64,000 bases of DNA, from sequence record PX915678.1; one strand, 5' to 3'. Numbering within the stretch: the stretch's first letter is position 1; each line of letters starts with the position of its first letter. Below are positions 23,695 through 42,471 of the stretch, one piece after another. A program made the position numbers and the translations under genes. This DNA is from a phage. The notes under the pieces are model-generated. The model did no database searches. It saw only the letters and a program-made list of their open reading frames with translations, and was not told where the DNA came from.

Positions 23695-24015
23695 TTATAG
23701 CGTAATCCATTCTCGTACTGTCTGAGTTACTACACGTTCACGGGGCTCGACTAGTTCAACAGTCGGAACTGCATAATACCAGTCAGAATGGTAAGAACCT
23801 GAGCGAGTTTCATTTACAGACACATGAACGTTATGTTTTGGACTAAAATAAATGCACTGACGATATTGGCATTTACCATCTTGCACCCAGTCTTCTATTT
23901 CGATAGGTTTAAGATAATCCGAAAAATCGAAATCATAATTTTCTGAAAATGCATCATGGTCTTCGATGATTTCACTCAGAACTGCATCAACATCTAATTT
24001 ATTTTCAATAGTCAT
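23695..24015 (-). CDS. Hypothetical protein
   Basis: 106-aa ORF. Confidence 0.5.
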   Translation of the reverse strand: MTIENKLDVDAVLSEIIEDHDAFSENYDFDFSDYLKPIEIEDWVQDGKCQYRQCIYFSPKHNVHVSVNETRSGSYHSDWYYAVPTVELVEPRERVVTQTVREWITL

Positions 24016-24920: not shown

Positions 24921-25310
24921 TTAATCCAAAATATTATTAGGCATTGGTTGAACACTCGCAAGTTCTTTAAAGAACTCAGTAGAGTCAGGTAATTTAACCA
25001 TTTCCGGAGCATGCTTGCTAAATTTGTGTTTACAATGACGGCATTTATATTCAAGTTCCGGTTTACGCCAGTTAATCAATTGAACCTGTTCAGTACCGCA
25101 TTCAGGACAATTAGGAACATTTTTAGAAGCCCTTTCGCGACGTTCAACCATAGCTATAATAGCATCCCAGGCTGGAGGTTTAAAGTCTAAATCATCACAA
25201 CCATGAATCTTTCCACGCATTTCTAAATCGTCTTCTTCACCAGCCATAATAATTTTAATTAGACTGGAATTACTTGAAGCTGCAATATCTTCTAATAGAC
25301 GCTTTTTCAT
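24921..25310 (-). CDS. Zinc-ribbon protein, function unknown
   Basis: 129-aa ORF with CPECG...CRHCKH four-Cys ribbon. Confidence 0.5.
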
Positions 25311-26233
25311 TTCAGTACCTCAATAGCATCACGTAAACCATTTGCTTTGGCGGTTAAAGCCTTAAGAACTTTAGTATGCTCTTCAATCTGTTTTTCAACT
25401 TCAATCAAACGGGCACTGAGATATTCGCGTTCTTCTTTCATAGTATCATTCCCATGATTGGGCTTTGGTGCAGATTTAAATTTACTAGGGTCCTTTAACT
25501 TAATAACAACTTTAGTTTCAAACAGTGAAAGACCATAATTCGTATTATCATCAAAGGATTCAACTACGTCCATTTTAGACAATAACGTACGAAGATTATA
25601 AGTCAAAGAACGAATCGTTTTATTATGTTTATTAGCTTCACGCGGTTTCATATATGGAAGATTTTTATATATTTCATGCGGAGCACAAACAATAATTGAC
25701 AATTCAAATGGTCCATTCTGTGATGATGGAATGAATTTAGCCGTAACCCAATCTTTTACATTTACATTAATAGTACGGTCATCGCCATGACAAAACAGTC
25801 TACGAGAATGCTTAAAAAGCATATTCACATTATTATTAAATTCGTGTGAAAACTCACTAGCAAATTTTTCTTTACTATTTTTAGAAAACCATTCTTCTAA
25901 ATAAGTTCTTTTCACGTCATTAATAATATTAAATGTAACAACATTAGCATTTGATACATTAGTCTCAATGTAGCTTGGATACATAAATTTTTTAACATTA
26001 TTAACAGCTATCACAGAAGATAGTAATCGGGAACGTTTGAACCACTCTAGCAAAGAACCAAGAGAATGTGAATATGCATTTTGTGTATCTTTACAAATAT
26101 GGTTTTCCCATCCAATATAGTCTAAAAAATCACGAAGAATATTATTGATTACTGCTCTGTGTCCGATCTGATAATTACGGTGTTTAGTAATAAGACTGTC
26201 AAAATAATCAATATAATGTTTACGAGTTTTCAT
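25307..26233 (-). CDS. Paralog family member A: globular domain plus C-terminal coiled coil
   Basis: 308-aa ORF, MKTR N-terminus, RSRLLS motif, C-terminal heptad segment; SD before ATG. Confidence 0.6.
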   Translation of the reverse strand: MKTRKHYIDYFDSLITKHRNYQIGHRAVINNILRDFLDYIGWENHICKDTQNAYSHSLGSLLEWFKRSRLLSSVIAVNNVKKFMYPSYIETNVSNANVVTFNIINDVKRTYLEEWFSKNSKEKFASEFSHEFNNNVNMLFKHSRRLFCHGDDRTINVNVKDWVTAKFIPSSQNGPFELSIIVCAPHEIYKNLPYMKPREANKHNKTIRSLTYNLRTLLSKMDVVESFDDNTNYGLSLFETKVVIKLKDPSKFKSAPKPNHGNDTMKEEREYLSARLIEVEKQIEEHTKVLKALTAKANGLRDAIEVLK

Positions 26234-26285
26234 GTTCTTCTCACTTGGTTAATGATTTATGCTCCGAGCCATCCTTGGCTTTAAA

Positions 26286-27287
26286 TTACTTAATTAACTG
26301 TAAAGCTTGTTCAAGACGATCCAGGCGATTAACAGATTCTTCCCAAATCCTTTTAGCCTGCTCATATTCTTTCTGCGCTTTATTAGAAATTTCTAGAACT
26401 TCTTTATAAGCCTTTTCTAGTGCAATAACTTCTGGACGAATTTCTACAGGTTCAGGCGAATCATCAAGATTATCCATTAGTTCCTCAAGTGTAATTTCTT
26501 CTTTAGGAGTATTCACAATTTCATCACATTTTTGTTGGTAAATTTCTTTATCAGTCGGTGAGTACGCACATTTCACTTCACGAAGACTAACTACAATTTT
26601 ATATCCTTCCCAACCGCATATATTCTTAAAAGGATACGTATGAATATTTTCTACTGTTTCCATACAAAGTAATGCGGTTTCTAATTGACGAGTTATAGTG
26701 CTAGCAATTGAGAAAAATTTATTAATGTTCTTTTGGTTAGTTTCTGGTGTAAAAAATCCATAATTCACAAAAATAGATACTTTATTTTTATCAAGTTCAT
26801 ATTCTTTTATGATAATCATATCAGAAGCCAAAGGATGAATTTGACGATAATCGCCATAACATAATTTAGAAGCTGATTTTAGAATCTGTCCTTTGAAAAG
26901 TCTGAAATTACTAATCCAACGACGAGTAAAAATATTCTCAGGGTCTTCTTTATTATTAAGATGATAAGAATTAACATCACCGAACCAATTATATCCTACT
27001 ACATCTTTGGTTCGTTTAATTTCTTTCCCAAAATTACCAAGAATATCCCGATTAACCAAATATGAAAGAAGACGAGACTCTTTAAAGGTTTTCTTGATAA
27101 CATCTTTATCTACACGGCTAGAAATTTTACGAATTTCATGAATAAATTTAACAGAAGAAACAATACTTGCGTCAACACTATTGAGCCATTGATTGATAAT
27201 AGAAATAACGCTATTTTGACCAAACATCGGTATAGCTTTATCATCAATAACACTATTGAATGATTTGATATATTCGTTACGAGTCAT
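26286..27287 (-). CDS. Paralog family member B
   Basis: 333 aa from ATG 27285-27287 (SD GAGGAG); MTR N-terminus, ESRLLS motif, C-terminal coiled coil. Confidence 0.6.
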   Translation of the reverse strand: MTRNEYIKSFNSVIDDKAIPMFGQNSVISIINQWLNSVDASIVSSVKFIHEIRKISSRVDKDVIKKTFKESRLLSYLVNRDILGNFGKEIKRTKDVVGYNWFGDVNSYHLNNKEDPENIFTRRWISNFRLFKGQILKSASKLCYGDYRQIHPLASDMIIIKEYELDKNKVSIFVNYGFFTPETNQKNINKFFSIASTITRQLETALLCMETVENIHTYPFKNICGWEGYKIVVSLREVKCAYSPTDKEIYQQKCDEIVNTPKEEITLEELMDNLDDSPEPVEIRPEVIALEKAYKEVLEISNKAQKEYEQAKRIWEESVNRLDRLEQALQLIK

Positions 27288-27344
27288 ATTAATCTCCTCA
27301 GTAGAAAGTAAGAACATTATACCACATCCTTGTGGCGAAGTAAA

Positions 27345-28367
27345 CTAGTTTAGTGCATTTAATGCATTGTTCAGTTTAGAACGTTGCTTCGTAAGATTTT
27401 TGACTTTTTCTTGAGCTTTTTCTAGTATCTTTTCAGCTTCTAGCACTTCATTAGTTGCTTTAACGAGTTCATCATCTACTGCCTTGATAGACTTCTCAAT
27501 CGCATCTGCATGCCATTTTTCAACAGGTTTAAGACTCGGATTTTCAACAGGAAGAAAATTCACTTTATTGAATTTCCATGAATCCTTATTACCTGAGCTA
27601 TACATCCAAAATTTAGGATCGTTTGATGAGTAATTGGATAAATTTAATTTATCTTGCACTTCTTGCTTTTTCTCTTGCGGGACTTCGTCCTTTCTCAAAA
27701 AATCGTATTTAAATGAAACGATCATATCAAGTTCATATGTTGTTGTGTCTAATTTAAATCGCTCAAAACGAGGTAAAATCTTAGACTGAACACTAGCAAC
27801 AACATCCATATACTTAAATGCTTCTGTCAACTGTGATTTAAGGCATTCACAAATTGAAAGAGAATTTTTTGTGTTAGGTTTAAAGCTAATTCGTGCAGTT
27901 CTATTATTTTCTTTTAATGGTCTTACTTCCATCTGAAGAGTATAACCATCAAATTTCAGATTCTTTAAGTTAATATCAGAACCTTTTAATCGACTCGCAG
28001 TTGATAAAATTTGCTTTAATTGTTTACGGAATAGAGCAATAAATCTCCATTCAATACGATAATGATTTGGATTGAAAAATCCAGATGATAAATCGACCTT
28101 ACTTTGACCAACGCCTTGAACAAATAAAGGATTTTTATAATCAATAGTTTTACAGAAATCGGTGAGCTGCTCACGGGCCGTCATTTGTGTAATATATCCT
28201 GCTTTACTAAAATTACGCACCCATTCACTGCTATTCGTATACTTAAAGTGATGAATAACACGATTAACTTTATCAGGGTCTAAATTATTTTCACACAAAA
28301 ATGTCATAACATCACGAGTATAGCTGGCATTACGAACCATATCTTCAATTTGAGAACGAGTTTTCAT
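27345..28367 (-). CDS. Paralog family member C
   Basis: 340-aa ORF; MKTR N-terminus; C-terminal coiled coil; SD AAGGAA. Confidence 0.6.
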   Translation of the reverse strand: MKTRSQIEDMVRNASYTRDVMTFLCENNLDPDKVNRVIHHFKYTNSSEWVRNFSKAGYITQMTAREQLTDFCKTIDYKNPLFVQGVGQSKVDLSSGFFNPNHYRIEWRFIALFRKQLKQILSTASRLKGSDINLKNLKFDGYTLQMEVRPLKENNRTARISFKPNTKNSLSICECLKSQLTEAFKYMDVVASVQSKILPRFERFKLDTTTYELDMIVSFKYDFLRKDEVPQEKKQEVQDKLNLSNYSSNDPKFWMYSSGNKDSWKFNKVNFLPVENPSLKPVEKWHADAIEKSIKAVDDELVKATNEVLEAEKILEKAQEKVKNLTKQRSKLNNALNALN

Positions 28368-28375
28368 GGTGTTCC

Positions 28376-29266
28376 TTAAGATTTAAGTAAATCAACAATT
28401 TTAATTAACTTTTCACGCTCAGATTTAGCTTTACTATTCAGTCCAGATAGTCTGAAAATTTCATCATCATATTGTTGAATAGAAATATTCAGCTCTTCAA
28501 TCTGTTTATTAAAATAATCAATTTGTTCAAAATGTTTTTCGTTACTATGAACTGGTACAGGTTTTGTAGGCAATGTAGTTGAACTGGATTCATCCGGGCG
28601 ATAAATTAAAATACAACTTGAACCAATAGGGCATTTTGCATCAGATGAATATTCTAATGTTCCAGCTTCTTTTAAAACTTCAAAAGCTAAACAGAGATGA
28701 TGACCCATATTGACATAATCTGTAGAGTGAGCTCTGATATAATAATCATCGCCACGAGTACTAAATTTAAAGCATTTAAGGTCTTCTGTATTATTGGTCT
28801 TAAAAATCATTTGTTTATCTAGACCTTTAGCTAATCGAGCGCCTAATGCTAATAATCGTCTTTGATTTTCCCACAAATCCGCAATCATTTGATCGAATGA
28901 TAATTTTGGCATTAGTCGACCATAAAGGTCATATCCTTTATTATAATTACGAAGGATTTCACTCGCGTTAATACGAGACAATGCTCCAATTTTATTAAGG
29001 GCTTTCATAATGCGATTAGATAAACTCATTCCAGACCCATTTGTTCGCTGCAAATGTTTTTCTAATCCAAATCCAATATCAACTTTAAACTTATCTAAAA
29101 TTTCTGCATGAACATCTCTGTCAATAACATTCAAATCCAAAGTTGGGTTAAATCTATGAAAAAATTTATCCGGCTCTCCACGGCGAAATACAGTCCATTC
29201 ATTCATCATTTTTTTATTAACTAAAGATTTAATTACTGCATTGACATTATTAATTACTACTGACAT
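28376..29266 (-). CDS. Paralog family member D
   Basis: 296 aa from ATG 29264-29266 (SD GAGGAAAAT); track ORF starts at TTG 29287; C-terminal coiled coil. Confidence 0.55.
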   Translation of the reverse strand: MSVVINNVNAVIKSLVNKKMMNEWTVFRRGEPDKFFHRFNPTLDLNVIDRDVHAEILDKFKVDIGFGLEKHLQRTNGSGMSLSNRIMKALNKIGALSRINASEILRNYNKGYDLYGRLMPKLSFDQMIADLWENQRRLLALGARLAKGLDKQMIFKTNNTEDLKCFKFSTRGDDYYIRAHSTDYVNMGHHLCLAFEVLKEAGTLEYSSDAKCPIGSSCILIYRPDESSSTTLPTKPVPVHSNEKHFEQIDYFNKQIEELNISIQQYDDEIFRLSGLNSKAKSEREKLIKIVDLLKS

Positions 29267-29273
29267 ATTTTCC

Positions 29274-29681
29274 TCACTCAATTTCAATTTTACTAAATAT
29301 ACAGAATAAGATGGAACAGACTATATAAGCACCACACACAGATTGAACTAATACCATTCCAAAGAACCAAACAATATTATCAAACAATGTCTGTTTTACG
29401 TCGAAAGGACGTAAACTTACAGTAATATTATCACCTTTTTCTATTGAAGAATACATCTCTGGGGAAATATATTCACTAAATCTATAACCGTCTTTAAGTT
29501 CATATACGGCAATAAACGATAAACTAGACCCTTTTCCTTGTGTTCCTGTAATGGTATTAACTACAGTAACATCATAATCTTTATAATGCATATAATCATT
29601 AATTGCGTAATAACCATATGCAACTACTACACATAAACAACATATCAATAAATTCAATCTTTTAATTATCAACTGTTTCAT
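29274..29681 (-). CDS. Membrane protein with N- and C-terminal transmembrane helices
   Basis: 135-aa ORF; hydrophobic segments at both ends. Confidence 0.5.
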   Translation of the reverse strand: MKQLIIKRLNLLICCLCVVVAYGYYAINDYMHYKDYDVTVVNTITGTQGKGSSLSFIAVYELKDGYRFSEYISPEMYSSIEKGDNITVSLRPFDVKQTLFDNIVWFFGMVLVQSVCGAYIVCSILFCIFSKIEIE

Positions 29682-29736: not shown

Positions 29737-30264
29737 TTATGCGAGTACCGTCTTTAACCGTTCTTCAAACTTCCGAAGAGTATTTTGGCGTTCAGCTCTT
29801 TGCTTTTTGTAAGTTTCAATACGCTCTGAAATGAGAGTGTATCGTTCATTTACCGATTCTTTCATAAAATCAGGAATTTCACGAGAAGCTTTAATCTCGT
29901 CAAATTTATCAATAACAGCTTGCTCTTCAGCAATTAAGTTATCATACATTAAAATATCTTTCTTGATGAACTCAATATCTTCTTGAGTTACACGAGATAA
30001 TTTAGATGCTTTATCCTTTTTGTACTGTTCGTTAGTATCACGAGACCAGTGCAATGTACGATTTTTATTCGTATTTTTGTAAATTTCTACAATACCGATC
30101 TCATCAATAATAACGATCCAATTCCAACGGGATTTGTAAATTTGTCCTCCATCAACAGTGATTTCACCTCCGATTGAGATGTCGTTAAAGAACTTGCTTT
30201 GCGCTTCAGATTTAAATTTACCATCGTTGTAATTTACCAAGTTGAAAATATCTTTAGCGTTCAT
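29737..30264 (-). CDS. Hypothetical protein
   Basis: 175-aa ORF, first gene after early promoter at 30286; SD GGAGG. Confidence 0.55.
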   Translation of the reverse strand: MNAKDIFNLVNYNDGKFKSEAQSKFFNDISIGGEITVDGGQIYKSRWNWIVIIDEIGIVEIYKNTNKNRTLHWSRDTNEQYKKDKASKLSRVTQEDIEFIKKDILMYDNLIAEEQAVIDKFDEIKASREIPDFMKESVNERYTLISERIETYKKQRAERQNTLRKFEERLKTVLA

Positions 30265-41997: not shown

Positions 41998-42471
41998 TTA
42001 TTTGAATGATTTGACGTACTGAATAGAGCCTTTGCTATTCACGAAAGCGATTTTACCATTTTTGTTATACATGGTAGCAGTACGCTGATAACCATAAGTT
42101 TGTTTACCAGATTGATAACCAACTAATGCGAAATTATCTTCACCCATTTTATTCTGCTTAGCGCGGATACGTTCATGACCGTGTGCCATAAGAACCTTAG
42201 CGTCGCCAGTTGCAATGGATCTACGAGTTTTTTCATCTTCAACTGTATTAACAAAATCGTCAAATGAATCAAATTTAGCATGAGATTTATTATACAGTTT
42301 TCCATCTACTGCATAATTATATCCCTGTACATCCATCTCAACTTCTGTACCATCATCCAATACAGCAGTGATTTTTTGACCTTTTTTAAATTTCAAAAGA
42401 TCAGTAAAAGATTCAGCGATAATTTGAGAATTAATAGCTGCTTCAGTGATAAATTCTTGATATGTTTTCAT
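41998..42471 (-). CDS. Internal head protein (IPII/IPIII-like) with capsid-targeting sequence
   Basis: 157-aa ORF starting MKTYQEFITEA, the T4 CTS cleaved by head protease; late promoter at 42506. Confidence 0.7.
   Translation of the reverse strand: MKTYQEFITEAAINSQIIAESFTDLLKFKKGQKITAVLDDGTEVEMDVQGYNYAVDGKLYNKSHAKFDSFDDFVNTVEDEKTRRSIATGDAKVLMAHGHERIRAKQNKMGEDNFALVGYQSGKQTYGYQRTATMYNKNGKIAFVNSKGSIQYVKSFK

Follow-up and report, generated by a model that had tools for sequence, protein, structure and literature searches.

What is encoded, and to what end, by the four consecutive genes of similar size and architecture that occupy a part of the nrdC-tk region in the 64,000-nucleotide stretch of phage DNA analysed here (sequence record PX915678.1; hereinafter, the window, that is, the whole stretch at its full length)? 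The first-pass annotation of this DNA, made from the letters alone, had described these genes as divergent paralogs, each consisting of a strongly diverged head and a C-terminal coiled-coil tail, with no assignable function and no counterpart among the characterised T4 proteins. The explanation that we favour, with a probability of roughly 0.6, is that the block is the nrdC.3-nrdC.6 array, the four genes of which are early, accessory and dispensable, come from a single superfamily of T4-like phages and encode early non-enzymatic protein inhibitors of host immunity. The anti-immunity role is published for nrdC.5; for the other three genes, nrdC.3, nrdC.4 and nrdC.6, we put the chances that they are anti-defence genes at about even. 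The open reading frame (ORF) listing of the window bears out the four co-directional genes of similar build, all on the minus strand, which in all probability are the orthologs of the following T4 genes (aa, amino acids):

25307..26233, minus strand: nrdC.3 ortholog, 308 aa, superfamily member of the nrdC.3/4 type, 95.5% amino acid identity to T4 NrdC.3 and the same synteny
26286..27287, minus strand: nrdC.4 ortholog, 333 aa, superfamily member of the nrdC.3/4 type, 96.7% identity to T4 NrdC.4
27345..28367, minus strand: nrdC.5 ortholog, 340 aa, DUF7235, 95.6% identity to T4 NrdC.5, the published anti-Dsr1 gene
28376..29266, minus strand: nrdC.6 ortholog, 296 aa, 96.9% identity to T4 NrdC.6 over 259 aa

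Two of these genes have alternative starts, namely an upstream ATG at 27317 that would yield 343 aa for nrdC.4 and a TTG at 29287 that would yield 303 aa for nrdC.6; the shorter starts given above are those located behind Shine-Dalgarno sequences (GAGGAG for nrdC.4 and GAGG for nrdC.6). A scan of the window with the hidden Markov model (HMM) of the superfamily detected exactly four members.

In a set of 50,697 phage genomes, megablast with the block as the query retrieved 503 records at 91-97% identity, nearly all of them T4-like phages of Escherichia, Shigella or Yersinia, and the window belongs to a Tequatrovirus. The T4 annotation (NC_000866) shows the identical gene order, nrdC, nrdC.1, nrdC.2, nrdC.3 (308 aa), nrdC.4 (333 aa), nrdC.5 (340 aa), nrdC.6 and nrdC.7 through nrdC.11; because of this synteny and the 95-97% protein identity, it is practically certain that the four array genes correspond to the named T4 ORFs nrdC.3, nrdC.4, nrdC.5 and nrdC.6. 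For nrdC.5, the assignment includes a full-length match to the Pfam family PF23882 (DUF7235; 428 bits at a cut-off of 30, residues 1-340, profile positions 1-307), a match to phrog_2351 (E 9e-170), a difference from the T4 allele at 15 of 340 residues, and a location between nrdC.6 and nrdC.4, which is the slot orthologous to that of T4 NrdC.5. Both nrdC.3 (E 1e-100) and nrdC.4 (E 6e-168) are matched by phrog_1435, and phrog_2257 matches nrdC.6 over residues 1-296 (E 1e-150). As for further Pfam assignments, PF26897 is precomputed for homologs 95% identical to nrdC.4 and for a protein, P0056, the C-terminal half of which is of the nrdC.3 type, and PF26899 is carried by homologs 96-97% identical to nrdC.6. 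GenBank and UniRef entries for homologs of NrdC.3-NrdC.6 and NrdC.10 are often labelled 'thioredoxin'; none of these has a thioredoxin domain, and the labels seem to have spread from the gene symbol nrdC.x.

The published function comes from the study of an evolved T4 clone with compensatory deletions that no longer plated on Escherichia coli ECOR17 and plated again when dsr1, a SIR2-domain defence gene, was deleted from this host; dsr1 on a plasmid shields MG1655 from the T4 mutant, and plasmid-expressed T4 nrdC.5 alone restores infection of the Dsr1 cells by the mutant (Srikant, Guegler & Laub, eLife 2022; PMC9391042). That paper calls nrdC.5 an early gene and treats it as a single uncharacterised one, without a mechanism, a link to nrdC.3, nrdC.4 or nrdC.6, or a description of the Straboviridae-wide superfamily. 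Judging by the sequence and the gene order, the window nrdC.5 is the ortholog of the published anti-Dsr1 gene, the activity itself having been shown for the T4 allele; the earlier statement that the block maps to no characterised T4 protein and has no assignable function accordingly falls. In the searchable literature, we found no functional data on nrdC.3, nrdC.4, nrdC.6 or DUF7235 and no later paper on the mechanism of nrdC.5. With regard to the presumable target, a 2026 preprint describes an Avs7-type TPR sensor in E. coli Dsr1 and identifies the major capsid protein of a Drexlerviridae phage as the trigger. Given the published activity of nrdC.5 against Dsr1 and the common family of the four genes, nrdC.3, nrdC.4 and nrdC.6 are good candidates for anti-immunity factors.

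How strongly are the four proteins related? BLASTP comparison between the neighbours is significant for nrdC.3 versus nrdC.4 alone (24% identity, E 6e-5), and in the curated libraries there are three families for the four proteins, one shared by nrdC.3 and nrdC.4 and one each for nrdC.5 and nrdC.6. In comparisons of family alignments of 10-74 non-identical sequences each, hhalign linked nrdC.3 with nrdC.4 at 98.3% probability (E 1.4e-14). The full-length match between nrdC.3 and nrdC.5, with 95% probability, drops to 19% when only the heads are compared; it is largely an effect of the tails and therefore is not relied upon. In the comparisons without tails, nrdC.4 and nrdC.5 align over 147 collinear columns (E 3e-4), and the remaining E values are 1e-3 for nrdC.3-nrdC.5, 8e-3 for nrdC.5-nrdC.6, 0.1 for nrdC.4-nrdC.6 and 0.2 for nrdC.3-nrdC.6, with column-reversed alignments as the control (E 0.16-0.47). 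Thus, as far as the heads are concerned, the links to nrdC.5 appear weak and those to nrdC.6 do not reach significance, and by direct tests alone nrdC.6 would not count as a homolog.

The connection is made by proteins from other genera that bridge the families. Two of these, P0209 and P0216, match the nrdC.6 HMM with E values of 1e-13 and 1e-12, respectively, and the nrdC.5 HMM with 1e-5 (head positions 30-174); P0218 matches the HMMs of nrdC.5 (1e-8) and nrdC.4 (9e-4); and P0238 matches the nrdC.4 HMM across positions 1-247 (6e-6) and the nrdC.5 HMM in the tail, positions 242-315 (2e-8). Using the nrdC.6 family alone as the seed for an iterative hmmsearch of 1372 sequences, which included six-frame ORFs of all the loci, with every member reversed and shuffled for decoys, we recovered the single-copy proteins of other genera in rounds 2-3. 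The third round also brought in nrdC.3 and nrdC.5, with E values of 9e-9 and ~1e-7, respectively, and the fourth nrdC.4; all the alignments were near-full-length, and the search gained zero reversed or shuffled decoys. The independently built PHROG profiles cross-link as well (phrog_1435, 2351, 2257, 26858, 33957, 31182, 23608 and 12512, all labelled 'unknown function'). These observations suggest that the four genes are very probably ancient paralogs within one Straboviridae-restricted superfamily, the support for which is mostly indirect. The paralogy proposed in the first-pass annotation thus stands insofar as the four genes are related and share a layout; a direct strong link exists for nrdC.3 and nrdC.4 only, and the rest are joined through the intermediates.

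The superfamily has a narrow range. When 1.84 billion representative proteins were searched exhaustively with an HMM that combines the four families, just 34 reached E ≤ 1e-3; the full-length ones that were new comprise 284-364 aa, and all superfamily proteins that have a name or a long contig come from T4-like phage contigs of 165-175 kb (e.g., Klebsiella phage F48-like and Escherichia phage EcS1). At the fixed locus, Tequatrovirus genomes carry four copies; in Mosigvirus and Dhakavirus there are three, an nrdC.6-type, an nrdC.5-type and an nrdC.3- or nrdC.4-type gene, which follow one another as they do in Tequatrovirus; and the genomes of Jiaodavirus, Karamvirus, Moonvirus and Tegunavirus carry one, a protein of ~290-336 aa with the same tail that is encoded in the nrdC.10-nrdC interval and, in the first three of these genera, directly upstream of a gene annotated as nrdC.2-like, 'thioredoxin' or 'T4-like'. 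A search for related loci in IMG/VR returned 10 loci, all from genera found already, and the locus of Aeromonas Tulanevirus has a different synteny, without the array. Three proteins, Acj61 p120 and p121 and fHe-Yen9-01 gp111, were not counted as members given their borderline sequence E values (1e-4 to 0.9).

The 30-representative alignment reveals a family anatomy with a fixed order of elements. The N-terminal motif M(K)TRxE[YF]I is followed by a variable helical region, block A ([FK]xxx[RG]xLSxxxAxxxLxxF), a variable loop, block B (FxxNxxxLLxxAxRLxxGxxR), a β-hairpin, a helix (QLxxALxxMxxV), further strands, a variable and often acidic linker with one invariant proline, and the coiled-coil tail with the C-terminal L..AL..LK. 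Two features noticed at first reading have their place in this scheme: the N-termini MKTRK, MTRNE and MKTRS are indeed present, and so is the shared (R/E)SRLLS motif (KRSRLLS and KESRLLS), which is included in block A. The head, of ~230-280 residues, is an α/β, fast-evolving region, and the tail spans 45-60 residues. The columns conserved in ≥60% of the representatives consist of A, L, F, R, G, P, I, V and M, along with T and K at single positions; none of the conserved His, Asp, Glu, Cys or Ser residues that would suggest catalysis are found in this alignment, in agreement with the earlier impression that there is no catalytic motif. Scans of the four proteins against Pfam, NCBIfam and PADLOC produced only DUF7235 and noise, and no enzyme domain of Pfam or NCBIfam was detected in any of the four.

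The tails, which the first reading had recognised as heptad-like segments in all four proteins, are confirmed by a crude heptad scan (hydrophobic residues in a/d positions, no Pro or Gly) that delineates residues 263-298 of nrdC.3, 286-320 of nrdC.4, 282-340 of nrdC.5 and 246-274 of nrdC.6, as well as by helices in the AlphaFold2 (AF2) models of nrdC.5 and nrdC.6. Their predicted extents are as follows:

25310..25450, minus strand: C-terminal coiled-coil tail of nrdC.3, approximately residues 262-308, from the heptad scan
26289..26438, minus strand: C-terminal coiled-coil tail of nrdC.4, approximately residues 284-333, from the heptad scan
27348..27527, minus strand: C-terminal coiled-coil tail of nrdC.5, approximately residues 281-340, from the AF2 helix and the heptad scan
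28379..28543, minus strand: C-terminal helical tail of nrdC.6, approximately residues 242-296, from the AF2 helices and tail identity

The tail is more conserved than the head in all ortholog pairs tested. For nrdC.3 and its Mosigvirus ortholog, the identity is 67% in the tail and 56% in the head; for nrdC.4 and its distant orthologs, 62-66% and 26-51% (64% and 26% in the comparison with P0201); and for nrdC.6 and its orthologs, 60-67% and 31-54% (60% and 31% for the Mosigvirus one). Among the four paralogs, the tails differ.

The AF2 model of nrdC.6 (mean predicted local distance difference test score, pLDDT, 75.9; predicted template modelling score 0.64) shows the family layout, with helices at residues 242-272 and 278-295. 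The nrdC.5 model, for which 57 sequences were used, is of low quality in its middle part (pLDDT 47.8) and was kept out of the fold searches; it contains one long helix, 281-339, along which the block-mean pLDDT rises from ~56 to 90, and, with the reservation imposed by its quality, its helices and hairpin are collinear with those of nrdC.6. When the nrdC.6 model was compared to BFVD using Foldseek, the orthologs came first, followed by uncharacterised proteins of ~300-335 aa from T4-like phages of Enterobacter, Pectobacterium, Acinetobacter and Yersinia, with template modelling (TM) scores of 0.38-0.49. The latter include p121 and gp111, which had not been accepted as members by sequence; of these two, Acj61 p121 is encoded inside the nrdC.10-nrdC interval and fHe-Yen9-01 gp111 elsewhere. 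The Foldseek search of PDB with the array protein model returned nothing at E <= 0.001, and the recurrent weak matches to H-NOX, BcsD and TRAPP (TM ~0.2) were judged not meaningful. Similarly, among PDB chains, only noise was obtained for NrdC.5 (phmmer, E up to 1) and for the profiles of the nrdC.6 family (A4) and of all four families (A5).

The four genes are present in ~465-502 of the ~503 Tequatrovirus genomes: at an identity of at least 80%, NrdC.4 is found in ~465, NrdC.5 in ~496 and NrdC.6 in ~502 genomes, and the neighbouring NrdC.10 is found at an identity of at least 95% in 503. Considering this near-universal presence in Tequatrovirus and the conservation of three ortholog types in the same order in Mosigvirus and Dhakavirus, the description of this block as part of a plasticity zone was overstated. 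The ratio of nonsynonymous to synonymous substitution rates (dN/dS; Nei-Gojobori, compared to T4 and a second Tequatrovirus) is 0.05-0.31 for the four genes and 0-0.10 for the conserved neighbours (nrdC and nrdC.8-nrdC.11). The array genes are real coding genes under purifying selection, and their proteins evolve several-fold faster than those of the neighbours. The diversifying selection suggested by the first-pass annotation finds no support in these gene-wide values, which are above those of the neighbours (0-0.1) and well below 1.

Several rearrangements and allelic differences were observed within the array. P0056 (299 aa, on a 167 kb contig) is an in-frame fusion of NrdC.5 residues ~146-270 with NrdC.3 residues ~138-308, corresponding to window 25307-27930, which implies that two paralogs recombined within a short ..(K/N)VN.. 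sequence common to both and that nrdC.4 was thereby deleted. Its nrdC.3-type half seems to be a divergent allele and appears similar to the nrdC.3-type protein of Mosigvirus, which would suggest exchange between the genera. In many Tequatrovirus genomes, the alignment with the block begins only at query nucleotide 438 or 661, so that in the 3' two-thirds of nrdC.3 (window 25307-25967) the C-terminal part seems to exist as a second, divergent allele. In Shigella phage Sf25, the nrdC.6 homolog P0095 (378 aa) contains an internal partial duplication, in which profile positions 1-244 are followed by 159-281 again. The T4 reference nrdC.6 has a 1-nucleotide deletion relative to window 28460-28480 (T4 NC_000866 12067-12170), GAGCTG-ATATT versus GAGCTGAATATT, that frameshifts the gene to 275 aa with the loss of the coiled-coil tail; the gene is intact in the window and in two other Tequatroviruses, and the frameshift reflects either mutation of the laboratory strain or faulty sequencing of the reference.

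Taking the domain architecture and the published activity of nrdC.5 together, we propose a tentative model in which the NrdC.x proteins are binders rather than enzymes, the variable head being the specificity module that binds a particular host immune protein and the coiled-coil tail the oligomerisation module. NrdC.5 would be made early and bind Dsr1 ahead of the late trigger, such that the NADase stays off, by analogy with the published blocking of DSR2 by DSAD1; the direct binding of NrdC.5 to Dsr1 in this scheme is conceivable and is offered with some reserve. Each of nrdC.3, nrdC.4 and nrdC.6 would neutralise a different defence system. In its general form, which we advance as a tentative proposal, NrdC.3-NrdC.6 and their homologs throughout Straboviridae could be modular immune antagonists that combine a conserved, family-specific tail for oligomerisation or docking with a rapidly diverging head repeatedly retargeted to other immune sensors, in which case nrdC.3, nrdC.4 and nrdC.6 might each act against a distinct system for which there is no matched T4 counter-defence gene.

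Several observations weigh against the interpretation of the array as a set of immunity inhibitors. The experimental support concerns nrdC.5 alone and consists of one complementation experiment in one paper; paralogs can have unrelated roles, and this applies to nrdC.3, nrdC.4 and nrdC.6; and the near-universal presence in Tequatrovirus is compatible with a housekeeping accessory role too. The gene-wide dN/dS of 0.05-0.31 provides no evidence of the diversifying or positive selection that would be the mark of an arms race. As for the common origin, the comparisons of the nrdC.6 head are non-significant by themselves (E 0.008-0.2), so that homology is a matter of transitive links and one AF2 model, and, with a poor nrdC.5 model, a common fold of the four proteins is putative.

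The alternatives differ in how they account for the same facts. The array might have a role outside defence, in early host takeover or in the regulation of transcription, replication or nucleotide metabolism, with the effect of nrdC.5 on Dsr1 being indirect, for example, through the timing or level of the trigger or through NAD+ metabolism. Such a role, which we regard as unlikely, would fit the absence of a biochemical mechanism in the nrdC.5 publication, the purifying selection and near-universality in Tequatrovirus, and the location of the array among the nucleotide-metabolism genes nrdC, nrdD, nrdG and tk; however, the region is non-essential, the consequence of nrdC.5 loss is strictly host-specific and is cured by deletion of dsr1, no DNA-binding, nucleotide-binding or enzymatic domain is detectable, and the heads are 22-56% identical between genera, compared to ~78% for NrdC.10. 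Alternatively, the four proteins could form one hetero-oligomeric complex via their tails, with a single function, so that the anti-Dsr1 activity would belong to the whole complex. That the C-terminal coiled coil and the terminal L..AL..LK are common to all four, that the order of the nrdC.6, nrdC.5 and nrdC.3/4 types is kept in three genera and that all four genes are co-conserved in ~500 Tequatrovirus genomes speaks for this possibility, which nevertheless appears improbable, given that the single member in several genera implies an ancestral state that works alone, that the tails are family-specific and conserved within ortholog groups but not between paralogs, that T4 nrdC.5 is functional even though the frameshift removed the nrdC.6 tail in the T4 reference, and that nrdC.5 alone, supplied in trans, rescued the mutant.

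A more radical possibility is that nrdC.6, and perhaps nrdC.5, are unrelated to the other proteins, with which they would share only the size and a generic coiled coil, the profile links being a drift through low-complexity sequence. The non-significant BLASTP results for all pairs save nrdC.3 and nrdC.4, the head-only hhalign E values of 0.008-0.2 for nrdC.6 and the three separate families in Pfam and PHROGs are what would be expected in that case. We nevertheless consider it very improbable because the bridging matches span the head (HMM positions ~30-250) and thus extend beyond the tail, no reversed or shuffled decoys were gained, blocks A and B come in the same order across all the families, the Foldseek matches of the nrdC.6 model are T4-like phage proteins (TM 0.38-0.49), of which one of the two mapped lies at the locus, and the secondary structures of the nrdC.5 and nrdC.6 models are collinear. 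Finally, the proteins could travel inside the capsid and enter the host together with the DNA, as do the T4 internal proteins, some of which are known anti-defence factors (IPIII, PMC9391042), with M(K)TRxE[YF]I serving as a capsid-targeting sequence. This motif is conserved across the superfamily and resembles the leader MKTYQEFITE of an internal protein-like ORF at window 41998-42471 (minus strand), but the resemblance involves ~5 residues only and is probably coincidental, the four window proteins have no I/L-x-E site at the expected place (YIDY, YIKS, QIED and none), and nrdC.5 is described as early and works when expressed by the host from a plasmid. To our knowledge, no virion proteomics study has reported NrdC.x proteins, and packaging hardly seems credible.

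Some features of the surroundings complete the description of the locus. The gap between nrdC.5 and nrdC.4 contains a promoter-like site:

27316..27344, minus strand: putative sigma-70 or T4-early-type promoter-like site, GTTTACT-N17-(TG)TATAAT

This site, upstream of nrdC.4, matches 10 of the 12 consensus positions and has an extended -10 element, the assignment being a consensus match alone; across the region, the count of promoter-like sites equals the shuffle expectation. On one side of the array, nrdC.2 (window 24921-25310) overlaps the end of nrdC.3 by 4 nucleotides; its product has 129 aa here and 104 aa in T4, the two being only 81% identical across the 97 residues that align (dN/dS 0.23), and contains a zinc-ribbon-like CxxC…CxxC motif (CPECG…CRHCKH). 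On the other side, nrdC.8 (window 29737-30264), the C-terminus of which is a charged K/E/R-rich helix, was rejected as a superfamily member (E 0.07 with the superfamily HMM). A 2026 paper on DRT1 lists nrdC.8 among the T4 transcripts that are down in DRT1-expressing cells and terms it a nucleotide reductase, a label that seems to derive from the gene name only. A conserved protein of ~260 aa that has no counterpart in the window is encoded at the locus in other genera (L015 11257-12045, L016 11683-12456, L019 11845-12636 and L018 11037-11850). In Jiaodavirus and Karamvirus, it lies just upstream of the single superfamily member, and in Tegunavirus it is found in the same interval; in Citrobacter phage Moon, it is split into two ORFs (Moon91 and Moon90). 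A 106-aa ORF at window 23695-24015, 1.3 kb from the array, appears by length and synteny to be gp49.2, the published inhibitor of the OLD defence nuclease (2026, PMC13096335). If so, the early region from pin to nrdC.11 includes at least two counter-defence genes.

The array is not categorically new because its genes have long been annotated and the function of nrdC.5 is published. What appears to be new relative to Pfam, PHROGs and the searchable literature is the placement of the four genes in a single Straboviridae-restricted superfamily with a constant tail and a variable head and with 1-4 copies per genome, by which nrdC.3, nrdC.4 and nrdC.6 become paralogs of a gene known to counter a defence. 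Studies of the phage-host arms race use T4 as their reference phage, yet for most of its ~130 accessory ORFs no role is known; few inhibitors of SIR2/NADase defence proteins have been reported, nrdC.5 being one of them, and the paralogs of nrdC.5 include three adjacent ORFs and the single-copy genes of T4-like phages of Klebsiella, Enterobacter, Citrobacter and Yersinia, which Pfam and PHROGs scatter over at least eight 'unknown' families. Thus, nrdC.3, nrdC.4 and nrdC.6 are three immediate, cheaply testable anti-defence candidates; the natural head variants on a common scaffold lend themselves to mapping the determinants of target specificity; and the family is of relevance where T4-like phages are selected or engineered for therapy with a wider host range in mind. 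If the proteins are modular antagonists, the family would be a ready-made set of probes for the discovery of the defence systems that they target.

Among the known systems, the closest is T4 NrdC.5 itself (PF23882), of which the third gene in the window is the ortholog, at the same locus and with a full-length DUF7235 match, the other three being distant paralogs. A functional analogue is DSAD1, with which a phage blocks another SIR2 defence protein, DSR2, through binding to the sensor region of the latter (PMC10973363, PMC11087589, PMC11290490). Like NrdC.5, it is a protein without an enzymatic motif that neutralises a SIR2-NADase sensing a late structural protein; the two differ in the target, DSR2 as opposed to Dsr1, and in the coiled-coil tail, which is a feature of NrdC.5. 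Sequence similarity to DSAD1 was not detected: no PDB chain was matched beyond noise by NrdC.5 (E up to 1) or by the A4 and A5 profiles, the set searched presumably including the chains of the DSR2-DSAD1 complex. Two other classes were considered and rejected. NARP1 and NARP2 rebuild NAD+ by means of enzymes (ADPR-pyrophosphokinase and Namat, or Nampt and Nmnat), and the four proteins have neither an enzyme domain of Pfam or NCBIfam nor conserved catalytic residues for such reconstitution; the T4 internal proteins share with the array the partial resemblance of M(K)T..E[FY]I to MKTYQEFITE, without the I/L-x-E site. The anti-defence genes of T4, such as those of gp49.2 against OLD, TifA against ToxN, Dmd against RnlA, AdfA against DarTG, and IPI and IPIII, are similar to the array in being early or accessory, dispensable on laboratory hosts, host range-determining and clustered in the non-essential arms of the genome; these are single genes, mostly for proteins of less than 150 aa, whereas the array consists of multi-copy paralogs of ~300-340 aa with a common tail. 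In this respect, it is reminiscent of the viral antagonists that expand by tandem duplication, such as the 'accordion' of poxvirus K3L and the segmental amplifications of T4 tifA and gp49.2, with which it shares the tandem paralogs at one locus, the differences in copy number among lineages and the recombination between copies, as in the fusion protein P0056 and the internal duplication in Sf25. In contrast to such dosage amplifications, the duplications in the array are ancient, with less than 25% identity between the copies, and are stably inherited.

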